Source of the DNA: Escherichia phage L27
Reading direction: 5' to 3' (one strand)
Sequence record: LC473039.1
DNA length: 64,000 bases
The notes below the pieces were generated by a model. That model searched no databases. It was not told where the DNA came from and worked only from the letters and a program-made list of their open reading frames with translations. Positions 13,064 through 20,427 of the stretch are shown piece after piece (within the stretch, counting starts at the first letter, position 1; every line of letters begins with the position of its first letter). A program made the position numbers and the translations under genes.

Positions 13064-14479
13064 ATGAGCGAGTTATTTAAACATGCGCACCTTCATGCAG
13101 GTCGAACTGAAAATGGTGCTGTAAACCATACTTCATCAATGTCTGCTCTGGTAGACTTCTACAAAGCCGCTGGCTCAAGCCGTAGCAATGTAGAAATCTT
13201 ACCAGACCTGTTCTACAAAGCTTTGCGTGAGGATGTTGATGTTGCAGTTCGTATTTTACTGCATATGCGAGATGTACGAGAAGGTATGGGTGAGCGTAAA
13301 GCTTTCCGAACTGTTTTACTTCAAGCGATTGAAGATAAGGTTTTAGAACCTACACAGGTTCTTCGCATTATGGATAAGATTGCAGAACTTGGTCGTTTTG
13401 ATGACTTCAAAATCTTCGTAGGTACTCGTTTCGAGACAGATGCCTTCAAACATTTAGAAGCAGCATTACTAGACCCTGCAACAGCAGGTTTAGCAGCTAA
13501 GTGGTTGCCACGAGTAAAACCACGCCACAAACAGTTTGTAAAACGTTTCTGTAAGTTTGCAAACTTAAGCGAGAAGGAGTATCGCACACTGCTATCTGCA
13601 CTGTCTGATACGGTTGAGCAAAAAATCTCTGCTAATGAGTTTGGTAAGATTGACTACAGCAAGATTCCTTCACTCGCTGCTGCACGTTACCAAAAGCTCT
13701 TTAACCGTAAAGATGGAGAGCGTTACAAAGCTTACATCGAATCATTATCAAAGGGTGAGGTTAAGATTAATGCTGGTGCTGTTTACCCATATGATGTGAT
13801 TAAATCTATTAAGTATGGTAATGCAGATGTTGCTAATGAGCAGTGGAAAGCACTTCCAAACTGGATGGCAGAAGGTGAAAACATCTTGTGTATGACTGAT
13901 GTTTCAAGCTCAATGTCTTGGGTGAATCTTGGTTCAATCACTGCCCTTGATATTGGTGTATCACTTGCCTTGTATGTAGCAGAACGCAATACAGGTTGCT
14001 TTAAAGATGAGTTAATGGTCTATTCAACAAACCCTCATTTCATTGAACTGAGTGGTGATTTACGAAACCGTCATCGTCAGGTAATGCGTCATGTTGAATA
14101 TGGTTCAACTAACTTACAAGCAGCTTTTGACCGTATTCTTGAGGTAGGTAAGAGAAACAACTTGACTCAGAAAGATATGCCAAGTAAGCTTATTATCTTC
14201 TCTGATATGGAGTTTAATCAGGTTGATGGTGCAAATGGTCGTACAAACTTTGAAGCAATTCAGAGTAAGTACAAAAAAGCTGGATACGAAATGCCACAAC
14301 TAGTATTCTGGTACTTAGCAAACCGTAATGGTACTTGCGAAGTATCTGTTAAGGATAATGGTGTAGCAATGGTATCAGGGTTCTCTCCAGCCACTTTAAA
14401 AGCTCTGCTTGGTGGTGAGAAGTTTGACCCAATCAGTGTAATGCTCAAAGCGGTAATGATTGACCGTTATATCTGGTAA
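13064..14479 (+). CDS. vWA-domain protein with MIDAS-like motif; candidate Ro60/TROVE-like (or DUF2828-like) RNA-binding protein (471 aa)
   Basis: DxSxS motif (DVSSSMS) about residue 280 followed by vWA-like pattern (IIFSDMEFN, VSGFSP); overall architecture resembles Ro60/Rsr as recalled, not searched. Confidence 0.5.
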   Translation: MSELFKHAHLHAGRTENGAVNHTSSMSALVDFYKAAGSSRSNVEILPDLFYKALREDVDVAVRILLHMRDVREGMGERKAFRTVLLQAIEDKVLEPTQVLRIMDKIAELGRFDDFKIFVGTRFETDAFKHLEAALLDPATAGLAAKWLPRVKPRHKQFVKRFCKFANLSEKEYRTLLSALSDTVEQKISANEFGKIDYSKIPSLAAARYQKLFNRKDGERYKAYIESLSKGEVKINAGAVYPYDVIKSIKYGNADVANEQWKALPNWMAEGENILCMTDVSSSMSWVNLGSITALDIGVSLALYVAERNTGCFKDELMVYSTNPHFIELSGDLRNRHRQVMRHVEYGSTNLQAAFDRILEVGKRNNLTQKDMPSKLIIFSDMEFNQVDGANGRTNFEAIQSKYKKAGYEMPQLVFWYLANRNGTCEVSVKDNGVAMVSGFSPATLKALLGGEKFDPISVMLKAVMIDRYIW

Positions 14480-14644: not shown

Positions 14645-14721
14645 CTCTGTTTAGCTCAGCTTGGTAGAGCGTTCCGTTTGGGGCGGTAAGGCCGGAGGTT
14701 CAAGTCCTCCAACAGAGACCA
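14645..14721 (+). tRNA. tRNA-Pro (anticodon TGG)
   Basis: hand-folded cloverleaf; 7-bp acceptor ctctgtt/aacagag, T-loop ttcaagt, CCA encoded. Confidence 0.7.
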
Positions 14722-14728
14722 AATTAAT

Positions 14729-14806
14729 GTTCCAGTAGACAAAATGGTATAGTCACCACTCTTTCAAAGTGGATATTTGAGGGTTCAAATCCCTTCTGGA
14801 ACGCCA
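14729..14806 (+). tRNA. tRNA-Glu (anticodon TTC)
   Basis: acceptor gttccag/ctggaac, anticodon loop ctttcaa, CCA encoded. Confidence 0.7.
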
Positions 14807-14810
14807 GTTT

Positions 14811-14889
14811 TGACAGAAGACCAATTACAGCAAACTTAATCTTATTCATCTGAAGGTAAATCGGACAAAGAAGAGACTTGGTCTGGTCA
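14811..14889 (+). ncRNA. structured RNA-like element A (Y-RNA-like family)
   Basis: terminal helix tgac/gtca + AGAA/UG internal loop + GACCAA/TTGGTC helix; conserved 'tacagcaa' box. Confidence 0.5.
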
Positions 14890-14898
14890 TTAAGAATT

Positions 14899-14975
14899 GC
14901 GGGTATAGAGAAAGGGCGTCTCACATGTCTCATTAGCATGGTATCGGCAGGTTCGACTCCTGCACCCGCCTCCAA
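14899..14975 (+). tRNA. tRNA-Met-like (anticodon CAT), 1:72 unpaired
   Basis: anticodon loop ctcatta, T-arm gcagg/ttcgact/cctgc, CCA encoded; first acceptor pair mismatched. Confidence 0.6.
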
Positions 14976-14978
14976 ATT

Positions 14979-15049
14979 TACAGAAGACCGTTTACAGCAA
15001 AATTGAATGAAATTTTTAGCGGAAAAATTGAAAGATACGGTCTGGTAAT
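14979..15049 (+). ncRNA. structured RNA-like element B (Y-RNA-like family)
   Basis: terminal helix ttac/gtaa + AGAA/UG loop + GACCGT/ACGGTC helix. Confidence 0.5.
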
Positions 15050-15058
15050 ACTAAACAT

Positions 15059-15132
15059 GGTTAGGAAGCACATAAGGTATGTGCGGTCGCCTGTTAAGCG
15101 AATGGCACAGGGTTCGAATCCCTGACTAACCG
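15059..15132 (+). tRNA. tRNA-Asn (anticodon GTT)
   Basis: T-arm caggg/ttcgaat/ccctg, anticodon loop ctgttaa; CCA not encoded. Confidence 0.65.
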
Positions 15133-15144
15133 CAAAATTTAAAT

Positions 15145-15232
15145 GTGTCGTTATCCCGTAGATGGTAGCGGTGGGGACTGTAAATCCCTTGTCATTGAGA
15201 CTCGGTAGGTTCGACTCCTACACGGCACACCA
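15145..15232 (+). tRNA. tRNA-Tyr (anticodon GTA), long variable arm
   Basis: anticodon stem-loop gggga/ctgtaaa/tccct, T-arm gtagg/ttcgact/cctac, acceptor gtgtcgt/acggcac. Confidence 0.65.
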
Positions 15233-15254
15233 ACACTTAGCGAGATACTTAGTT

Positions 15255-15683
15255 ATGAGAGATGAAGTATACAAATCACAACTTGGTATGAGTTTGGGAA
15301 CTGCACAAAACAGACTAGTAAAAGATTTGCTATTCGATTTTATATGTAAGACAAATCAAAATAGATGTTTTCAGTGCGGAAAAGAAATGACTAGGGATGA
15401 TTTCTCTATCGAGCATAAGATTCCGTGGAGACATAGTGAGAATGCAAAAGAGCTTTTCTTTTCACTAGATAATATTTCTTATAGTCATCTTAAATGTAAC
15501 ATGAAAGCAGCAAGACCAGCACAGATAAGTGAAAGAAAACATAAAACAATTAAACACGGAACTGCGTATAGTTATTTTAAAGGCTGTAGATGCGATGAGT
15601 GTAGGTTGGCTAAGAATGCTGAGAGTAGAAGAAACTATAGTCCAGAAAGACGTAGGAAGAAGTATCTAAGAAATGGCACATGA
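15255..15683 (+). CDS. HNH homing endonuclease (142 aa)
   Basis: CFQCG...SIEHKIPW...N...H..CN HNH motif; basic C-terminus; embedded in tRNA cluster. Confidence 0.75.
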   Translation: MRDEVYKSQLGMSLGTAQNRLVKDLLFDFICKTNQNRCFQCGKEMTRDDFSIEHKIPWRHSENAKELFFSLDNISYSHLKCNMKAARPAQISERKHKTIKHGTAYSYFKGCRCDECRLAKNAESRRNYSPERRRKKYLRNGT

Positions 15684-15687
15684 ATTT

Positions 15688-15763
15688 GGGGTATTAGTTT
15701 AGACGGGTAAAATACGGGATTGTCTCTCCTGAGCCGCGAGTTCGATTCTCGCATACCTCGCCA
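15688..15763 (+). tRNA. tRNA-Asp (anticodon GTC)
   Basis: acceptor ggggtat/atacctc, anticodon loop ttgtctc, CCA encoded. Confidence 0.75.
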
Positions 15764-15821
15764 ATTTTGAGAGGGCTATTTAGCCCCTCCCTTAAAGGGT
15801 TCTTACGAGTATCTTTTAAAG

Positions 15822-15903
15822 GAGCAGAAGACCAAATACAGCAAGAACGTATGAAAATTTCAAGCCAATTTAATTTTGAAAAATTTAAAACTTGGTCTGG
15901 CTC
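15822..15903 (+). ncRNA. structured RNA-like element C (Y-RNA-like family)
   Basis: terminal helix gagc/gctc + AGAA/UG loop + GACCAA/TTGGTC helix. Confidence 0.5.
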
Positions 15904-15910
15904 AACAAAT

Positions 15911-16047
15911 TTACAGAAGACCGTTTACAGCAAAACTTAAACAATCTATTTCTCGGTAAAGAAAAGGCGAAGGTTCGATTCCTTCACTCGGCAGATGTCG
16001 AGTTGGTGTAATGGTAGCACTTAAGATGATAAACAACGGTCTGGTAA
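15911..16047 (+). ncRNA. structured RNA-like element D with circularly permuted tRNA-like module (candidate YrlA-type Y RNA)
   Basis: same terminal helices as A-C; interior has T-arm gaagg/ttcgatt/ccttc, then acceptor-3' actcggc, 4-nt linker, acceptor-5' gtcgagt (7-bp complement) and D-arm gtgt/aatggta/gcac. Confidence 0.5.
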
Positions 16048-16189
16048 TTATCTTTGTAGATAAGTTATTAAGCTTACCTGTGAGTATGCGACCACAAAGG
16101 GTGAAAGGGTAAATTCTAGATTTAAACCCAACAAGGCACATCGCTACAGACCTTAAGCAAGTCTGGGTAGCTTATCTACAAAGATAATT
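16046..16189 (+). ncRNA. structured element F bounded by a 19-bp perfect inverted repeat
   Basis: aattatctttgtagataag (16046-16064) is the exact reverse complement of 16171-16189; about 106-nt interior with internal hairpins. Confidence 0.45.
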
Positions 16190-16193
16190 TAAT

Positions 16194-16269
16194 GGAAGTG
16201 TAGCAGAATGGTGATGCGGTAGACTTTTAATCTGACAGGCGATGGGTTCGAATCCCTCCACTTCTACCA
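16194..16269 (+). tRNA. tRNA-Lys (anticodon TTT), atypical T-stem
   Basis: acceptor ggaagtg/cacttct, anticodon loop cttttaa; T-stem has A.C and U.U mismatches. Confidence 0.55.
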
Positions 16270-16273
16270 AAAT

Positions 16274-16350
16274 GGTTCAGTCGCAGATAAGGTAATGCAA
16301 GGGTCTCATAAGCCCTATGAATGTGGGTTCGATTCCCATCTGAACCTCCA
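16274..16350 (+). tRNA. tRNA-Met or Ile2 (anticodon CAT)
   Basis: acceptor ggttcag/ctgaacc perfect, anticodon loop ctcataa, CCA encoded. Confidence 0.7.
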
Positions 16351-16367
16351 ATTTATAGGTGATACTT

Positions 16368-16853
16368 ATGATTTGTGCCAACAAAGATTGCAGAAATGAA
16401 GCCGTTAAAGGTGGAAAATTTTGCTCACGCTCTTGTTCTGCAAAAGTGAACAACAAGAAACACCCAAAGAGAAGTCAGGAAGGCTCTTGCCATTCATGCG
16501 GAAAGGTAACGCCAAAAGCGAGAAAATACTGTGACGAATGTATTGCAGGTGGAGTCATGAAAAAACATAAGACCCATCATGAAAAAAGCAAAGCCAAATC
16601 ACTGCACGTTAAAAAGTCTCGTGACAGACTGAAGAAGGCTTTAGTTGATTACAAGGGTGGTTGTTGTTCAATTTGTGGTTACAATAGGTGCATAAAGGCT
16701 CTAGAGTTTCACCACTTAGACCCTAAGACAAAAGACTTCACAGTAAGTAAAAAACACTACTCACTGGCTACAATGCAGTCTGAAGTTGATAAGTGTGTCT
16801 TGCTTTGTGCAAATTGCCACAGAGAAGTACACGAAGGGGTAACAATGCTGTGA
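16368..16853 (+). CDS. HNH homing endonuclease (161 aa), Cys-rich N-terminus
   Basis: CSICGYN...LEFHHLDP...CANCHREVH HNH motif; stop codon lies inside the first bases of tRNA-Ile. Confidence 0.75.
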   Translation: MICANKDCRNEAVKGGKFCSRSCSAKVNNKKHPKRSQEGSCHSCGKVTPKARKYCDECIAGGVMKKHKTHHEKSKAKSLHVKKSRDRLKKALVDYKGGCCSICGYNRCIKALEFHHLDPKTKDFTVSKKHYSLATMQSEVDKCVLLCANCHREVHEGVTML

Positions 16854-16922
16854 AAGCACATATGGATGTGCATTCGGCTGATAACCGAAAGGCAGAAGGT
16901 TCAAATCCTTCTCACAGTACCA
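16847..16922 (+). tRNA. tRNA-Ile (anticodon GAT)
   Basis: clean cloverleaf: D-stem gcac/gtgc, anticodon stem ttcgg/ccgaa, T-stem gaagg/ccttc, CCA encoded. Confidence 0.8.
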
Positions 16923-16937
16923 ATTTCAATAAAGTTG

Positions 16938-16966
16938 TTGACATTGAGATGTGACTACTTTATAGT
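16938..16966 (+). promoter_or_regulatory. sigma70-like promoter (TTGACA-17-TATAGT) inside tRNA cluster
   Basis: consensus -35 and good -10 with 17-nt spacer. Confidence 0.65.
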
Positions 16967-17170
16967 AACCTTAGTTTTCGTTGCGTAGCGTCTATTTTGC
17001 AAATTTAAAATAAATGCAAACGACAATGTTTTTCTGGCAGTAGCTTGATAGGCTAAACACCAGTGAGGTCTTCCAATCCCTCATCAAAGAATTTGGCGTA
17101 CTCGCCCACGGTATGATTAATAAGGTGGGCATCTTTAAGGGCTTTCTAAGAGAGTCTTTAAAGATAATTA

Positions 17171-17252
17171 CGGGGCGTATCTCAGCGGTCTTCTAAACCG
17201 CCGTTAACCGAGTAAGTGGAGTATGCGGGTTCGAGTCCTGCCGCCTCGACCA
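17171..17252 (+). tRNA. aberrant tRNA-like gene (possible anticodon TCT), D-arm missing or unrecognisable
   Basis: good T-arm and 7-bp acceptor (cggggcg/cgcctcg) with CCA; stem-loop gcggt/cttctaa/accgc; only about 7 nt where the D-arm should be. Confidence 0.4.
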
Positions 17253-17395
17253 ATTTAGTTAGCAGATTACTTAGACGACCTAAGCGGGTCTTCCTGTAGG
17301 GAGGTGGTCTGTATCTCATGTTTTCCAGAACATGTAAATAATCTGAGAAGGGGCTTTACAGTGTTGAGATAATACGGTAAGCTTCGAATTATAGT

Positions 17396-17478
17396 ATGGG
17401 ACGATGTTAAGACTCTAAGGCATGAGCAACGGCTTCCAACACCGTTTCAAAGGGGTTCAACTCCTCCGTCCCATGCCA
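17396..17478 (+). tRNA. tRNA-Trp-like (anticodon CCA) with about 8-nt insertion before D-stem
   Basis: perfect 7-bp acceptor atgggac/gtcccat, anticodon loop ttccaac, T-loop ttcaact, CCA encoded; expanded D region. Confidence 0.45.
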
Positions 17479-17491
17479 AAGTCTTATTAGG

Positions 17492-17581
17492 GGTAGGTAG
17501 CGGCTAATGGTAGCCAAACAGTCTTGAAAACTGTTGCCACTGTAGAGATACGGTGAGGGTTCGACTCCTTTACTTACCGCC
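17492..17581 (+). tRNA. tRNA-Ser (anticodon TGA), long variable arm
   Basis: anticodon stem acagt/actgt perfect, loop cttgaaa, 20-nt variable arm. Confidence 0.75.
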
Positions 17582-17735
17582 TAATAAGATTTTACACCGT
17601 CCATGCTTGCTCGCATTTTCGGTTTATCCCTCGTGTATTGTCGTACACTGATAAAGCACCTAGTAGGTGTCACGGAGAAGAGATAATATCAAGCTCTCCA
17701 AAGGTTCTAGTCACCGGATTAAACAAGACTATGCA

Positions 17736-17758
17736 AAGACCAAATTAGGTCTTTTTAG
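17736..17758 (+). terminator. terminator-like hairpin with T-run inside tRNA cluster
   Basis: aagacc-aaatta-ggtctt followed by TTTTT. Confidence 0.45.
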
Positions 17759-17835
17759 AGGGCTTCTAAGGTTATTACAGCTTGTTGTGGAACCTTGTTG
17801 CTTAGGTTCTTAGAAGTTCTCTAAAAAGATTTAAT

Positions 17836-17913
17836 GGGAGATTGACGGTAATTGGTAAACCTATCTCGCTTAGAACGAGATGTTTGAGGGTTCGAATCCC
17901 TTGTCTCCTACCA
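17836..17913 (+). tRNA. tRNA with Leu-type anticodon TAG but short variable arm
   Basis: anticodon stem tctcg/cgaga, loop cttagaa, T-arm gaggg/ttcgaat/ccctt, CCA encoded. Confidence 0.55.
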
Positions 17914-17920
17914 AATTAAT

Positions 17921-17996
17921 GCAGGTGTAGCAAAATGGTTATGCGGCTGACTCTTAATCAGTAAGACGATGGGTTCAATTCCCTCCACCTGTACCA
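17921..17996 (+). tRNA. tRNA-Lys (anticodon CTT), atypical T-stem
   Basis: anticodon stem gctga/tcagt, loop ctcttaa; same unusual T-stem as the TTT Lys tRNA. Confidence 0.55.
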
Positions 17997-18002
17997 GACA
18001 TT

Positions 18003-18078
18003 GGGGATGTAGTTTACATGGTTAAAACATAAGTTTTGCAAACTTAAGTACAGGGTTCAATTCCCTGCTTCTCCACCA
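18003..18078 (+). tRNA. tRNA-Ala (anticodon TGC)
   Basis: G3.U70 wobble pair present; D-stem gttt/aaac, anticodon stem taagt/actta perfect. Confidence 0.8.
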
Positions 18079-18084
18079 ATTAGT

Positions 18085-18159
18085 GCATCCATAGTTTAAA
18101 CGGGAAAATTGCAGTCTTCCAAACTGAGGTTGAGGGTTCGATTCCCTCTGGATGCTCCA
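18085..18159 (+). tRNA. tRNA-Gly (anticodon TCC)
   Basis: perfect acceptor gcatcca/tggatgc, T-arm gaggg/ttcgatt/ccctc. Confidence 0.75.
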
Positions 18160-18165
18160 AATAAA

Positions 18166-18242
18166 GCTGCTTTCGTATAATTGGCTATTACACATCCCTT
18201 GTAAGGATGGAAATGCAGGTTCGAGTCCTGTGAGCAGCACCA
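18166..18242 (+). tRNA. tRNA-Thr (anticodon TGT)
   Basis: anticodon stem catcc/ggatg perfect, loop cttgtaa, CCA encoded. Confidence 0.75.
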
Positions 18243-18245
18243 ATT

Positions 18246-18333
18246 CAGAGGTCAAGTGAAAGACCGCTGGTGTCAACTGAAGACCGTAACAAATTCCACG
18301 GAGTTGAGTTAGCGGCACAACTTCAGACCTCTT
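18246..18333 (+). ncRNA. structured RNA-like element E (truncated family member with nested helices)
   Basis: outer helix agaggtc/gacctct; inner mini-element 18275-18307 has caac/gttg + ccgt/acgg helices and 'gaagaccgt' box. Confidence 0.4.
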
Positions 18334-18337
18334 TCAC

Positions 18338-18412
18338 ACTCGCTTAGTTTATATGGTAAAACATCACCCTTACAAGATGAAGAAAAAGGTTCAAGTCCTT
18401 TAGTGAGTACCA
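18338..18412 (+). tRNA. tRNA-Val (anticodon TAC)
   Basis: D-stem gttt/aaac, anticodon loop cttacaa, T-arm aaagg/ttcaagt/ccttt. Confidence 0.7.
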
Positions 18413-18413
18413 T

Positions 18414-18491
18414 GTTCCAGTATCCCAATTGGCAGAGGATGCAAGCTCAAACCTTGTATTAGTGACGGTTCGAATCCGTCTTGGAACACCA
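18414..18491 (+). tRNA. tRNA with Leu-type anticodon CAA but short variable arm
   Basis: anticodon stem gcaag/cttgt, loop ctcaaac, T-arm gacgg/ttcgaat/ccgtc perfect. Confidence 0.55.
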
Positions 18492-18510
18492 ATTTTAAGA
18501 GGCTATTTAG

Positions 18511-19068
18511 ATGAGATATTTGAAGTATGCTTCATGGATTTTCCTAGCTTTACTAGAGCCATTTGCAGCAACCCTAGCAGTCATCTTAGCACCTTTCGTA
18601 GTCCCATTCTACAGTGAGAAGAAAGGGCATCTACCTTTTGGATTCAGATGGATGGAGACCTATGACAACCCGATTGATGGTGATGAAGGCCACGTTAAAA
18701 GATGGGCTAAGATTAGAAAGATTGGTAAGCTGGGTGTCTACATGCAGAGAGTTGGGTGGCTCTGGAGAAACAAAGCTTATAACTTCTCTTACCATGTATT
18801 AGGAAGAGATGTAAAAGATGTTACTAAGTGGAAAGGTAATATCAACGTAAGTTCTAACCCTGAAGATAATCAAACAGGTTATCTCCTAATGTGGAACAGA
18901 AATGCTTGGGGTTTATTTGCTTTTATCCCATCAATTAAAGTCTTTGGTAAACAGTTTTACTGGAGAATTTATATTGGATGGAAACTAAAAAGTGTTGTCC
19001 CAGAAGAAAGAGCATTCTCAAGGGAAAGAGTTATGTTGGCATTCTTTATTCATCCACTGAGAAAGTAA
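18511..19068 (+). CDS. hypothetical membrane protein (185 aa) inside tRNA cluster
   Basis: N-terminal hydrophobic segment (WIFLALLEPFAATLAVILAPFVVPF); ORF between tRNA genes. Confidence 0.55.
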   Translation: MRYLKYASWIFLALLEPFAATLAVILAPFVVPFYSEKKGHLPFGFRWMETYDNPIDGDEGHVKRWAKIRKIGKLGVYMQRVGWLWRNKAYNFSYHVLGRDVKDVTKWKGNINVSSNPEDNQTGYLLMWNRNAWGLFAFIPSIKVFGKQFYWRIYIGWKLKSVVPEERAFSRERVMLAFFIHPLRK

Positions 19069-19076
19069 AGATTTAA

Positions 19077-19152
19077 AGGGGATTAGTTTACAAGGTTAAA
19101 ACCTCGGTCTTTGAAATCGAAGAAGTTGGTTCAATTCCAACATCCCCCGCCA
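19077..19152 (+). tRNA. tRNA-Gln (anticodon TTG), A1.C72 mismatch
   Basis: anticodon loop ctttgaa, T-arm gttgg/ttcaatt/ccaac perfect. Confidence 0.65.
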
Positions 19153-19154
19153 AT

Positions 19155-19233
19155 GCTCCATTACTCCAATTGGCAGAGAGGCCAGACTTAAAATCTGTGT
19201 TATGTATCGGTTCGAATCCGATATGGAGTACCA
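19155..19233 (+). tRNA. tRNA with Leu-type anticodon TAA but short variable arm
   Basis: anticodon loop cttaaaa, T-arm atcgg/ttcgaat/ccgat perfect. Confidence 0.55.
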
Positions 19234-19238
19234 AATTT

Positions 19239-19314
19239 AGCGGTATAGCATAACTGGCAATGCAGCAGTCTCTGAAGCTGTCCTATTAAGGTTCAAATCC
19301 TTATGCCGCTGCCA
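19239..19314 (+). tRNA. tRNA-Gln (anticodon CTG)
   Basis: anticodon stem gcagt/gctgt (two G.U), loop ctctgaa, T-arm taagg/ttcaaat/cctta. Confidence 0.7.
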
Positions 19315-19345
19315 CTTCTAAGGGTTCTTACGAGAGTCCTTAAAT

Positions 19346-19421
19346 GTGGCCTTATCATAAATGGTAATGACCCATGCTGTGAACATGGTCTATACGGGTT
19401 CAAATCCCGTAGGTCACCCCA
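19346..19421 (+). tRNA. tRNA-His (anticodon GTG)
   Basis: D-stem tcat/atga, anticodon stem ccatg/catgg perfect, T-arm acggg/ttcaaat/cccgt perfect. Confidence 0.8.
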
Positions 19422-19426
19422 ATTTA

Positions 19427-19502
19427 TAGTCCAAGTAGCTTATATGGTAAAGCGCGTGTCTGAAAAACATGAGAAGAGGGTTCAAATCCCACTGGACTAC
19501 CA
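19427..19502 (+). tRNA. tRNA-Phe (anticodon GAA), boundaries approximate
   Basis: D-stem gctt/aagc, anticodon loop ctgaaaa; acceptor tagtcca/tggacta. Confidence 0.6.
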
Positions 19503-19518
19503 ATTTCAAAGGTGCTTA

Positions 19519-20253
19519 ATGAAAGAGATGACAGAACAAGGTAAGGAGATTTTTAATCTCTTAAAAACCGGTAAAGGGTTTTCTAACCCACTTATTACTG
19601 GTGCAGCAGTTCTCGGTGGAACCGTAGCTGCCTCTACATCACTTGTAAACTCTATTAGTTCTGTAACAGACCCTACAATGAAGGATAAACTTGTTGCTGC
19701 TGGACTTACAACAGTCCTTCTAAACAGCTTTACAACAAGCCTTACAAGCACTACAGCAACTACTAAGACCCTAACAGACTACGGTCAAAAGTCTATTGAT
19801 GAGTTTTCATCACGTATGCAGGTAGCAAAGGGATACTCCAATGTTATGGGTGCAGCAGGAGAACAAGTTGGTTGTACACCATTCAGTGGTATTATGGGTG
19901 TTGCTACAGAGTATGGTCAAAAAGCTATTGACACGATTAACAGTACACTGGATAGTGTTAATGATGTGTTAAGTGACTTACAAGATGCTATTGATAAGGG
20001 TCTTGATACTGTTTCTGATTTAGCTAACCAAGCTGTAAGTAAAATTAATGAAGGTATTTCAAAGATTACAGCTTATGCAGATGAAGTTGTGCAGATGATT
20101 GAAGAAGAAGCTGCACTTATTGCAGAGTACCTTAAAACGAATATCAATGGGTTCTTAGCAGGTATCTTACCAGACTGGTTTGATGATGCTTGCAAAACTG
20201 GTGTAATTGACACTATTGCAACACCAGAAATGAAGAACGCATTACAGAAATAA
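19519..20253 (+). CDS. hypothetical Ser/Thr-rich protein (about 245 aa) inside tRNA cluster
   Basis: ORF from ATG at 19519; the upstream part of the track ORF overlaps tRNA genes and is discounted. Confidence 0.5.
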   Translation: MKEMTEQGKEIFNLLKTGKGFSNPLITGAAVLGGTVAASTSLVNSISSVTDPTMKDKLVAAGLTTVLLNSFTTSLTSTTATTKTLTDYGQKSIDEFSSRMQVAKGYSNVMGAAGEQVGCTPFSGIMGVATEYGQKAIDTINSTLDSVNDVLSDLQDAIDKGLDTVSDLANQAVSKINEGISKITAYADEVVQMIEEEAALIAEYLKTNINGFLAGILPDWFDDACKTGVIDTIATPEMKNALQK

Positions 20254-20254
20254 T

Positions 20255-20347
20255 GGAAGATTAACCCTAAAAGGTAAGGGAGCAGTTTGCTAAACTGCCA
20301 GTAGCTGAGAAATCGGTGTACCAGTTCAAGTCTGGTATCTTCCTCCA
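20255..20347 (+). tRNA. tRNA-Ser (anticodon GCT), long variable arm
   Basis: perfect acceptor ggaagat/atcttcc, anticodon stem gcagt/actgc, 21-nt variable arm. Confidence 0.8.
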
Positions 20348-20351
20348 ATTT

Positions 20352-20427
20352 GAATCCGTGACAGAAATGGCTATGTGCCTGTCTGCAAAACAGGTTTATA
20401 AGGGTTCGAGTCCCTTCGGATTCTCCA
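20352..20427 (+). tRNA. tRNA-Cys (anticodon GCA)
   Basis: perfect acceptor gaatccg/cggattc, anticodon stem cctgt/acagg. Confidence 0.8.

Follow-up and report, generated by a model that had tools for sequence, protein, structure and literature searches.

Two tRNA-like sequences in Escherichia phage L27 raise the question of whether a tRNA gene that departs from the canonical cloverleaf can still serve translation. They lie on the + strand of the 64,000-nucleotide (nt) stretch of L27 DNA analysed here (record LC473039.1; this whole stretch is called the window below), at 17171–17252 (element 1) and 17396–17478 (element 2). A first-pass annotation made from the sequence alone had described element 1 as a 7-base-pair (bp) acceptor stem, about 7 nt at the place of the D-arm, an anticodon stem-loop with UCU, a further 23 nt, a T-arm and CCA, and element 2 as a perfect acceptor stem, anticodon CCA and T-arm with about 8 extra nt between the acceptor and the D-stem; the sequence bears out both descriptions (7–8 extra nt in element 2). 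It proposed that they might be degenerate pseudogenes, non-canonical tRNAs or tRNA-mimic RNAs, and the evidence favours the second of these. We consider it likely that both are functional non-canonical phage tRNA genes, element 1 a tRNA-Arg(UCU) with a transposed D-segment and element 2 an (8/4) tRNA-Trp(CCA), transcribed with the surrounding array and completing its set of 20 amino acids. Element 1 is the more novel of the two; the other adds a member, or a variant, to the 8/4 class.

An array lacking only tRNA-Arg and tRNA-Trp

The window is part of the genome of a Felix O1-like myovirus (Felixounavirus, Ounavirinae), and the 800 bases around both elements have end-to-end matches in approximately 240 phage genomes at 95–99% identity. 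Both elements lie in a dense + strand tRNA array (14645–20427) in which ARAGORN identifies 24 canonical tRNAs, covering 18 amino acids. Only arginine and tryptophan are left without a tRNA in the window, and the anticodon-like triplets of the two elements are UCU (Arg, element 1) and CCA (Trp, element 2). The phage has a G+C content of 39%, and AGA, which is rare in E. coli, is its commonest arginine codon (43% of arginine codons, 18 per 1000 codons). Both loci are unannotated in most GenBank records; among the records listed, element 1 is labelled 'tRNA-OTHER' in the REP series (REP8–REP12) and VivaForever.

Neither element is called by ARAGORN in standard mode, and lowering its thresholds does not help. 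In mitochondrial mode element 2 is called as Trp(cca) at 17397–17474, while element 1 is never called by the mitochondrial modes, including those built for D-armless tRNAs. Covariance-model scoring, the check proposed in the first-pass annotation, gave 31.7 bits for element 1 against the Rfam tRNA model RF00005, just above the gathering threshold of 29 and only in an alignment that deletes the D-arm (15 model positions to 4 nt) and places a 20-nt insertion in the variable region. For element 2 the tRNA model gives no match, and Rfam offers only a sub-threshold match to tRNA-Sec (16.9 bits against a threshold of 47, E about 1). The same annotation had held that automated recovery of canonical cloverleaves with different boundaries would count against it; neither ARAGORN nor Rfam recovered one (for element 1, ARAGORN was run in standard, lowered-threshold and mitochondrial modes), and that challenge therefore fails.

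Against a covariance model of its family, element 1 reaches 98 bits, divergent members 39–97 bits and the canonical tRNAs of the window at most 32.5 bits, while element 2 gives no match at all. Both elements are far beyond chance: matching phage records number 262 for element 1 and 235 for element 2, and compensatory covariation is strong in each. Two ARAGORN calls of 94-nt and 98-nt 'tRNA-Arg(tct)' genes elsewhere (loci L015 and L059) proved to be element 1 family members forced into a misfold, and a tmRNA or permuted-tmRNA reading of the region was rejected (weak matches only, 10–20 bits against a threshold of 47).

A D-arm on the other side of the anticodon arm in element 1

Element 1 reads CGGGGCG-UAUCUCA-GCGGU-CUUCUAA-ACCGC-(23 nt)-GCGGG-UUCGAGU-CCUGC-CGCCUCG-A-CCA, and three of its arms are those expected of a tRNA. 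The acceptor stem pairs 17171–17177 with 17242–17248 (7 of 7 pairs covary, 97.9–98.9% of alignment cells paired) and ends in discriminator A73 and an encoded CCA (3' strand, discriminator and CCA together 17242–17252). The CCA is encoded in roughly two-thirds of family members and absent from roughly one-third; non-encoded CCA is common among genuine tRNA genes. The anticodon arm, GCGGU-CUUCUAA-ACCGC (17185–17201, anticodon UCU at 17192–17194), has a 5-bp stem in which all five pairs covary and a 7-nt loop with U33 and A37, and the T-arm, GCGGG-UUCGAGU-CCUGC (17225–17241), was found by a T-arm scan, has a 5-bp stem and a 7-nt loop of the UUCRANN consensus, and has 98–99% of cells paired, with covariation. 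Most family members have U33, A37 and a discriminator of A or G.

There is no D hairpin between position 9 and the anticodon arm, where only UCUCA is present. The acceptor strand is followed by the connector U8-A9-U10 (17178–17180) and then by CUCA (17181–17184), which pairs with CGAG (17209–17212) beyond the anticodon arm. A 7-nt bulge, CGUUAAC (17202–17208), separates CGAG from the anticodon stem, and after CGAG a D-loop-like segment, U-AAGUGGAG-UAU (17213–17224), runs into the T stem. Thus CGAG-U-AAGUGGAG, which corresponds to a D-stem 5' strand with its D-loop, lies 3' of the anticodon arm and pairs back to CUCA beside the acceptor. Element 1 does not lack a D-arm, part of which is contained in the supposed 23-nt region. 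The earlier observation that it has no recognisable D-arm is correct superficially, in that none is found in the usual place, and is wrong as to the molecule as a whole, since a D-stem and a D-loop-like motif (AAYUGGAG) sit 3' of the anticodon arm.

Covariation supports the transposed helix

Evidence for this helix comes from two collections of homologues. The first consists of 41 distinct viral-contig members, found using patterns of the conserved block in which the linker was never included and the D-loop-like segment was fixed only at TAA.TGGA(GTAT); this segment is invariant or near-invariant in the viral-contig sets. The linker tracks the free positions of the block in these contigs (CUC/GAG, CGC/GCG, CAC/GUG, CAGC/GCUG, CAUC/GAUG). 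In a gapless alignment of 38 of the viral-contig sequences, the structure with the transposed helix pairs 94.7% of cells, compared to 65.5% in shuffles and 33–47% in slid registers; double-sided changes are present in 18 of 21 pairs, and the three core pairs of the transposed helix are never unpaired.

The second collection comes from an independent metagenome scan with a pattern comprising the D-loop-like motif and T-arm only (UAANUGGAGUAUG-NNN-GUUCRA), leaving the anticodon unconstrained. The matches listed, to which all metagenome counts below refer and which give a lower bound on prevalence, are from freshwater, marine, soil and gut contigs and yielded 97 distinct parsed sequences, 80 of them gapless. 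Across these 80, the D-stem core is paired in 240 of 240 cells with 49 double-sided changes: pair 11:42 is CG in 78 sequences, UA in one and UG in one; pair 12:41 is UA in 44, GC in 18, AU in 15 and CG in three; and pair 13:40 is CG in 66, GC in six, UA in six and UG in two. In the viral-contig members, an alternative register, in which the linker CNC pairs with a second GAG (in UGGAGUAU), is broken in all four variant sequences. Rival pairings of element 1 fail exactly at the covarying positions of the helix.

Elsewhere in the molecule, the acceptor, anticodon and T stems of the homologues compared vary in a compensatory manner, including within the genus (anticodon stem GCGGU/ACCGC to GCUGU/ACAGC); near-constant, by contrast, are the 7-nt linker, the loop of the anticodon arm and the 23-nt region. 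U8 and A9 do not vary in any set, and the third connector position is invariant in the 38-sequence set and U in at least 90% of the 80-sequence set. Among the 97 metagenome sequences, the linker is TAT in 89 and TAC in seven, and the bulge is CGTTAA[C/A/T] in 63 and CATTAA[C/A/T] in 23, with a few others of 2–9 nt.

Distribution and arginine identity of the element 1 family

BLAST extends the family beyond Felixounavirus at 83–90% identity, and members occur in at least six unrelated phage lineages. They include Ounavirinae, Vequintavirinae (among them Mydovirus), Stephanstirmvirinae, Demerecviridae, Asteriusvirus and other jumbo phages (SE_PL, fENko-Kae01, Asteriusvirus BF17) and a Vibrio phage, and BLAST matches also lie in T5-like Klebsiella phages (Sugarlandvirus) and the phi92-like Justusliebigvirus. 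Copies in the jumbo phages stand alone, behind a -10-like sequence of their own. No match to element 1 was found in 5,426 complete E. coli genomes. A cellular origin was considered using a loose pattern, whose 120 genome matches were nearly all chance occurrences in AT-rich coding DNA; the real members among them are confined to two short contigs of metagenome-assembled genomes (MAGs; L146 and L170). In more distant members the GUUAA bulge is missing or the stems are weaker; all keep UAAUUGGA 3' of the anticodon arm together with an Arg anticodon.

The anticodons are almost exclusively those of arginine. In the metagenome set, in which the anticodon was free to vary, UCU is found in 85 of the 97 sequences, ACG in five, CCU in four and UCG in one, so that 95 of 96 interpretable members (approximately 99%) carry an Arg anticodon, one further sequence being mis-parsed. 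CCU and ACG members are also present in viral contigs. Some environmental phage contigs contain a pair of neighbouring rewired Arg tRNAs with different anticodons, CCU and UCU in L059 (12999–13077 and 13348–13426) and ACG and UCU in L083 (2689–2763 and 4029–4107), which indicates that the architecture has diversified over Arg isoacceptors within single genomes.

The family also takes the place of canonical tRNA-Arg. The slot of element 1 is occupied in two sister genera, Mooglevirus (Mijalis, Sf17) and Suspvirus (EcSzw_1), by a canonical 77-nt tRNA-Arg(TCT) with the same flanks (...CUUUAAAGAUAA / gene / A(A/U)UAGUUAGCAGAUUACUUAGACGACC...). Among the 66 family-bearing loci compared, a canonical Arg(ACG) gene is frequent and a separate canonical Arg(UCU) is essentially absent; ARAGORN made three 'tct' calls at these loci, which are a misfolded family member, another rearranged subtype and a neighbouring gene whose anticodon stem is poor.

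Some related loci show other irregularities. In Klebsiella phage vB_Kpn_K18PH07C1 (L013, 1499–2080), the element 1 copy is split after ...UAAUUGGAGU by an insertion of ~490 nt in which an open reading frame (ORF) starts at the junction, the record having overlapping 'HNH endonuclease' and 'tail protein' pseudo-coding sequences there, and the 3' part, GGUUCGAAUCCUGCCGCCUUCGCCA, lies downstream; this is either an intron-like element or a disruption. A similar break occurs within the T-arm of the copy in the Neisseriaceae MAG contig L146 (at 1458). In Escherichia phage EcSzw_1 (~545–665 of locus L253) and also in Mooglevirus, the canonical tRNA-Arg(TCT) is directly followed by a tRNA-like element of ~120 nt (GGUCAAG...GUAGG-UUCGACU-CCUAC-CUUGACU-G-CCA), which has a good acceptor and T-arm around a very large internal insertion and is not present in the L27 window.

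Element 2 and the 8/4 structure

Element 2 reads AUGGGAC-GAUGUUAAGA-CUC-UAAGGCAU-GAG-CA-ACGGC-UUCCAAC-ACCGU-UUCAA-AGGGG-UUCAACU-CCUCC-GUCCCAU-G-CCA (17396–17478, CCA included). Its homologues, in Felixounavirus, Mooglevirus, Suspvirus and Pectobacterium phages (the last at ~76% identity), all belong to the Ounavirinae, and a viral-contig scan gave, among the matches listed, only Ounavirinae copies besides many chance matches. Nine distinct sequences were available for comparison. An 8/4 structure is 99.4% paired in these, with double-sided changes in eight pairs, compared to 89.4% for a 7/5 cloverleaf. The acceptor stem can be drawn with 7 bp or, better, with 8 bp, in which AUGGGACG (17396–17403) pairs with 17467–17474 and the 3' strand CGUCCCAU, discriminator G73 and CCA occupy 17467–17478. 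The additional pair G8-C65 forms in nine of nine sequences, while A49.C65, the pairing that it replaces in the 7/5 form, is never standard (9/9); since G8 and C65 are invariant, this pair has no support from covariation. The first pair is A1-U72 or G1.U72, and G73 and CCA are conserved; this combination matches the bacterial tRNA-Trp identity set.

The acceptor is joined to the D-arm by a 9-nt connector, AUGUUAAGA (17404–17412), in place of the 2 nt of a canonical tRNA, and the connector block GAUGUUAAG is invariant in all nine homologues including those of Pectobacterium phages. The D-arm (17413–17426) has a 3-bp stem, CUC/GAG, and the loop UAAGGCAU; it is 100% paired and covaries (CUC/GAG, CAC/GUG, UAC/GUG; middle pair UA in six and AU in three). 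The anticodon stem is shifted up by one pair (26–30/40–44), AACGG/CCGUU enclosing a 9-nt loop, C-UUCCAAC-A, with U33, A37 and anticodon CCA at 17436–17438 (arm 17428–17446); 31.39 is unpaired and 26:44 pairs instead (AU in five, GC in three, GU in one). The T-arm (17452–17466) has the loop UUCAACU, and four of five stem pairs form, GGGG/CCUC; this 4-bp stem is 100% paired, with one compensatory change from G-C to U-A in Mijalis. The expanded D region reported by the first-pass annotation was thus correctly observed, and covariation adds to it the 8-bp acceptor, the 4-bp T stem and the shifted anticodon stem.

Phage Sf14 has been reported to encode 26 tRNAs recognizing 19 amino acids, with Arg_TCT in its list (PMC12482277). 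It matches element 2 over the full query at 90.6% identity, so that element 2 would be its missing twentieth.

The two elements have a module in common, GUUAA-N-[4-nt D-stem strand]-U-AA..GG (17202–17221 and 17404–17423), which is GUUAAC-CGAG-U-AAGUGG in element 1 and GUUAAG-ACUC-U-AAGG in element 2, and the layers flanking the D-stem are U.U and A.C in both. As a defining motif of the two GUUAA was rejected, because element 1 members exist with 2–3-nt bulges or with CAUUAA, and the resemblance may be coincidence or modular exchange.

Proposed structures and expression

If the transposed helix is read as a D-stem, element 1 would be a tRNA-Arg(UCU) reading AGA and AGG, with standard acceptor, anticodon and T-arms and the segment of positions 10–21 moved from the 5' to the 3' side of the anticodon arm. 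CUCA would run straight into the 5' strand of the anticodon stem, as do 22–25/26 of a normal tRNA and of which it would be the spatial equivalent, and CGAG would lead from the anticodon stem into U-AAGUGGAG as 10–13 lead into the D-loop; the CUCA:CGAG helix could then stack on the anticodon stem with the strand polarities of a normal D-stem. The chain would pass from the acceptor through U8-A9-U10 to the '22–25' strand, and from the anticodon stem through the 7-nt bulge to the '10–13' strand and D-loop, then via UAU into the T stem. AAYUGGAG would supply equivalents of A14, A15, G18-G19 and A20, and the U just before the T stem that of U48, allowing U8 to contact A14, A15 to contact U48 and G18-G19 to contact the T loop. 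A20 is the main D-loop identity element for E. coli arginyl-tRNA synthetase (ArgRS). With these equivalents in place, an L-shaped core and A20 could still be presented to ArgRS through a different chain connectivity, and the occurrence of GG followed by an A20 equivalent would explain why the design is confined to Arg tRNAs. Element 2 would be a tRNA-Trp(CCA) with an 8-bp acceptor, 4-bp T stem, 9-nt connector, 3-bp D-stem and an anticodon stem shifted by one pair. We infer that the two would be charged by the host ArgRS and tryptophanyl-tRNA synthetase (TrpRS) respectively and used by the ribosome.

Both elements are probably transcribed from a sigma-70-like promoter (TTGACA-17-TATAGT, + strand, 16938–16966), judging from its sequence, which comes closer to the consensus than any other site in the array (11 of 12 positions). 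It lies ~200 nt upstream of element 1, also precedes element 2 and the downstream tRNAs, and its site carries a promoter annotation in phage ASO1A. Element 1, the spacer, element 2 and tRNA-Ser follow one another on one strand with no predicted terminator between them. The 143-nt spacer (17253–17395, + strand) is itself predicted to be structured (minimum free energy (MFE) -39.9 kcal/mol, z = -2.46; one of 200 shuffles folds as well) and is kept together with its flanks in relatives; its hairpins include CUUAGACGACCUAAG and CAUGUUUUCCAGAACAUG. On the basis of this folding model, the spacer could serve as a processing signal or as a small RNA.

Several points weigh against the interpretation of both elements as functional tRNAs. 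The window is only part of the genome, and an Arg or Trp tRNA may lie elsewhere. For element 1, the assignment of AAYUGGAG to the D-loop and the role of A20 as ArgRS determinant draw on sequence resemblance and textbook knowledge, the D-stem has three reliable pairs with a fourth (14:39) that is usually A.C, and one metagenome family member has the anticodon ACU. Element 2 has only nine distinct homologues, from a single subfamily; the Pectobacterium versions have a bulged acceptor stem, the REP8 copy has an acceptor mismatch, and 31.39 is never a standard pair (9/9), leaving a 9-nt loop around YUCCAAM. In addition, some irregular tRNAs are charged yet unused in translation, or are uncharged (PMC5389517).

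Alternative explanations

The alternative that survives best, although we regard it as rather unlikely, is that the elements are tRNA mimics and not translational adaptors, acting as decoys or sponges for tRNA nucleases, modifying enzymes or synthetases, or as regulatory RNAs. Their architecture departs from that of the usual substrates of EF-Tu, the ribosome and synthetases, and a separate tRNA-mimic module is present nearby (~15900–16060, described below). The tRNA-Other of Bacillus cereus is reportedly a precedent for a tRNA-like RNA outside translation. Colicin D targets tRNA-Arg; it has been named among the host tRNA-depleting enzymes that phage tRNAs possibly counteract, retron Eco2 has been reported to cut host tRNA-Arg among others, and phage tRNAs have more generally been proposed or shown to counter host tRNA-cleaving defences. 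Further precedents are the uncharged or charged-but-unused tRNA-like RNAs, including inactive allo-tRNAs, of PMC5389517. However, a decoy would have no need of a 7-bp acceptor, discriminator, CCA, U33, A37 and a GG-A D-loop motif, all of which are kept, and decoding gives a sensible reason for the isoacceptor variants UCU, CCU, ACG and UCG. The element 1 family moreover stands at the locus of canonical tRNA-Arg(UCU) in its place and hardly ever coexists with one, and the two elements supply exactly the two absent amino acids, for which a rough estimate of chance is ~2 x (6/64) x (1/64) = ~0.003. The mimic option of the first-pass annotation thus fits the anticodon and synteny data more poorly than does a pair of non-canonical tRNAs.

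It is also conceivable, if very improbable, that element 1 belongs with the D-armless mitochondrial-type tRNAs and has a long, partly structured, class-II-like variable arm (hairpin CCG...UGG). This local hairpin is what RNAfold draws as the MFE structure of the single sequence, RNAalifold returns only the three classical stems, and the Rfam alignment treats the region as a variable-loop insertion. Yet in the 80 metagenome sequences the hairpin (columns 38–40/47–49) is 73.3% paired without a single double-sided change, whereas the long-range core is 100% paired with 49 such changes, and the ARAGORN modes for D-armless mitochondrial tRNAs make no call.

We give a similarly small chance to the possibility that element 2 is a specialised decoder, reading UGA or promoting frameshifts by means of a 9-nt anticodon loop and altered D region. 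The former follows from 31.39 never forming a standard pair, and the Hirsh suppressor, an E. coli tRNA-Trp mutated in its D-stem, reportedly reads UGA; against this, the seven central loop nucleotides, YUCCAAM, are those of a normal Trp anticodon loop, and C31.A39 is most simply read as a closing pair of non-Watson-Crick type that is tolerated.

Finally, that the elements are degenerate pseudogenes, relics of canonical tRNA-Arg and tRNA-Trp drifting after deletions or insertions, is barely credible: ARAGORN misses both and the Rfam tRNA model is marginal or absent, homing endonuclease genes disrupt phage tRNA arrays (the L013 copy is split by an HNH ORF) and the REP8 element 2 has its acceptor mismatch, but covariation effectively refutes this reading, with compensatory double substitutions keeping every stem across hundreds of phages and environmental contigs and even within the genus, the unusual segments being the most conserved parts and the anticodons remaining Arg-only or CCA.

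Other features of the array

Upstream of the two elements, window positions 15900–16060 contain a conserved non-coding module in which a long closing stem (AGAAGACCG...CGGUCU) surrounds a tRNA-like junction, comprising a canonical T-arm (GAAGG-UUCGAUU-CCUUC, 15969–15985), a hairpin (ACUCGGCAGAUGUCGAGU) and a D-arm-like sequence (GGUGUAAUGGUAGCAC, 16005–16020). The module has no anticodon arm and no CCA and is conserved across the Ounavirinae. It resembles a tRNA mimic of Y-RNA/YrlA type and is probably the 'element D' of the first-pass annotation. At 16045–16191, approximately 24 consecutive bp close a branched structure just upstream of tRNA-Lys (single-sequence MFE), for which Rfam gives only chance-level miRNA-type matches.

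Immediately upstream of the array is an ORF of 471 amino acids (13064–14479, + strand) with DUF2828 and DUF7788 domains, annotated as 'RNA-binding protein' in phage REP8; from its sequence, the product might be a partner of tRNA-like RNAs. Two small + strand ORFs lie inside the array, one at 15162–15683 that matches an HNH endonuclease marginally (21.1 bits, the cut-off being 21.4) and one at 16359–16853 with no Pfam match, in a region where relatives annotate HNH homing endonucleases. The presence of array ORFs varies among relatives, which suggests homing-endonuclease traffic. The neighbouring proteins comprise HNH endonucleases and DUF families only and give no clue to mechanism. At one and the same array position, an 86-nt tRNA-Thr(CGT) is recorded in REP8 (L001, 2775–2860) and a 78-nt tRNA-Asp(GTC) in ASO1A (L002, 2768–2845), which is either an annotation conflict or another irregular tRNA.

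Comparison with known tRNAs and implications

The closest comparison for element 1 is canonical tRNA-Arg(UCU), represented by the 77-nt gene of Shigella phage Sf17 and Mooglevirus and by E. coli argU. These have the same anticodon loop, CUUCUAA, and likewise a 7-bp acceptor, a discriminator that is A or G, CCA and a D-loop motif in which A comes after GG. The anticodon arm of the Sf17 gene, ACGGU-CUUCUAA-ACCGU, is identical to that of several element 1 family members (L005, L010, L011), the T-arm is close, and the Sf17/Mooglevirus gene and element 1 share a slot between tRNA-Ile and tRNA-Ser. Element 1 departs from the canonical gene in that its anticodon arm precedes the D-loop and the 5' strand of the D-stem, and in having a 7-nt bulge and 3-nt link to the T stem instead of a 5-nt variable loop. 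The result is a three-way junction in contrast to the canonical four-way one, and standard tRNA finders fail.

Metazoan mitochondrial tRNA-Ser(AGY/UCU) is similar in having only a few nt between the acceptor and the anticodon stem, with a D-arm that seems missing when drawn as a cloverleaf. In D-armless mitochondrial tRNAs, however, both the D-stem and the elbow contacts of G18-G19 are genuinely absent, and such tRNAs depend on partners that have co-evolved with them. Element 1 does not belong to this type because its D-stem and D-loop motif are present; from its sequence, it would differ in offering a covarying D-stem and a GG D-loop motif to unmodified bacterial machinery, if it works. Nor does it belong to class II, as its variable region forms no hairpin arm. 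The permuted and split tRNA genes of Cyanidioschyzon merolae and archaea also differ from the canonical order of segments, and their processing restores a normal cloverleaf RNA. Element 1 is not a permuted gene because its acceptor strands are at the ends of the 82-nt gene, and the mature RNA itself would be rearranged; no bulge-helix-bulge motif is evident in it, and a permuted arrangement is found in no family member. An engineered D-armless tRNA that E. coli accepts, 'mini HisT', can be used by a bacterial aminoacyl-tRNA synthetase, EF-Tu and the ribosome, its stability requiring a host pnp mutation (Edelmann et al. 2024, PMC11551756). In contrast to this engineered molecule, element 1 is natural and widespread, with its D-arm elements rearranged.

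For element 2, precedent exists in the (8/4) tRNA-Ser and tRNA-His of phage tRNA clusters and in an (8/4) tRNA 'with an extra loop' (Mukai et al. 2017, PMC5389517), with which it shares an 8-bp acceptor, 4-bp T stem and thus a 12-bp acceptor branch. It is unlike the allo-tRNA/tRNA-Sec-like 8/4 subgroup in having a 5-nt variable region, UCAAA, and no long V-arm, a D-stem of 3 bp with an 8-nt loop where tRNA-Sec has a long stem and a tetraloop, and an invariant 9-nt connector. The paper makes no mention of an 8/4 tRNA-Trp (neither 'tryptophan' nor 'Trp' occurs in PMC5389517). We found no description of a tRNA with a transposed D-arm in the full-text literature, most subscription journals being outside its coverage, and neither phages nor viruses come up in a 2020 review devoted to natural non-canonical tRNAs (PMC7609411).

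A more far-reaching proposal, which we put forward tentatively and do not consider the likelier outcome, is that element 1 represents a natural, horizontally mobile class of tRNA-Arg with non-cloverleaf topology that takes part in ordinary bacterial translation, maintained since its rewired core escapes a factor recognising canonical tRNA-Arg (e.g. a nuclease) while still being charged by ArgRS. This would make it the first topological isomer of the tRNA fold to occur naturally in a bacterial system. A core that satisfies ArgRS yet evades a tRNA-cleaving factor is an attractive hypothesis. Alternatively, the rewired form may be a neutral 'frozen accident' spread by horizontal transfer.

If element 1 is indeed charged and used, the L-shape can be built with a different strand order and pass RNase P, the CCA-adding and modification enzymes, ArgRS, EF-Tu and the ribosome. 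The family would then be a natural experiment on what each tRNA-handling factor recognises, and element 1 a ready-made scaffold for orthogonal tRNA design. It would also close an annotation gap, as Felix O1-like, phi92-like, Mydovirus, Sugarlandvirus, several jumbo and many environmental phages are currently scored as lacking a tRNA-Arg(UCU) for the most-used Arg codon, and the Ounavirinae as lacking tRNA-Trp, which distorts analyses of codon adaptation and tRNA complement. Under the same assumption, its wide horizontal spread, restricted to Arg isoacceptors, would point to a selective advantage of the rewired form to the phages that carry it, perhaps against tRNA-targeting defence.

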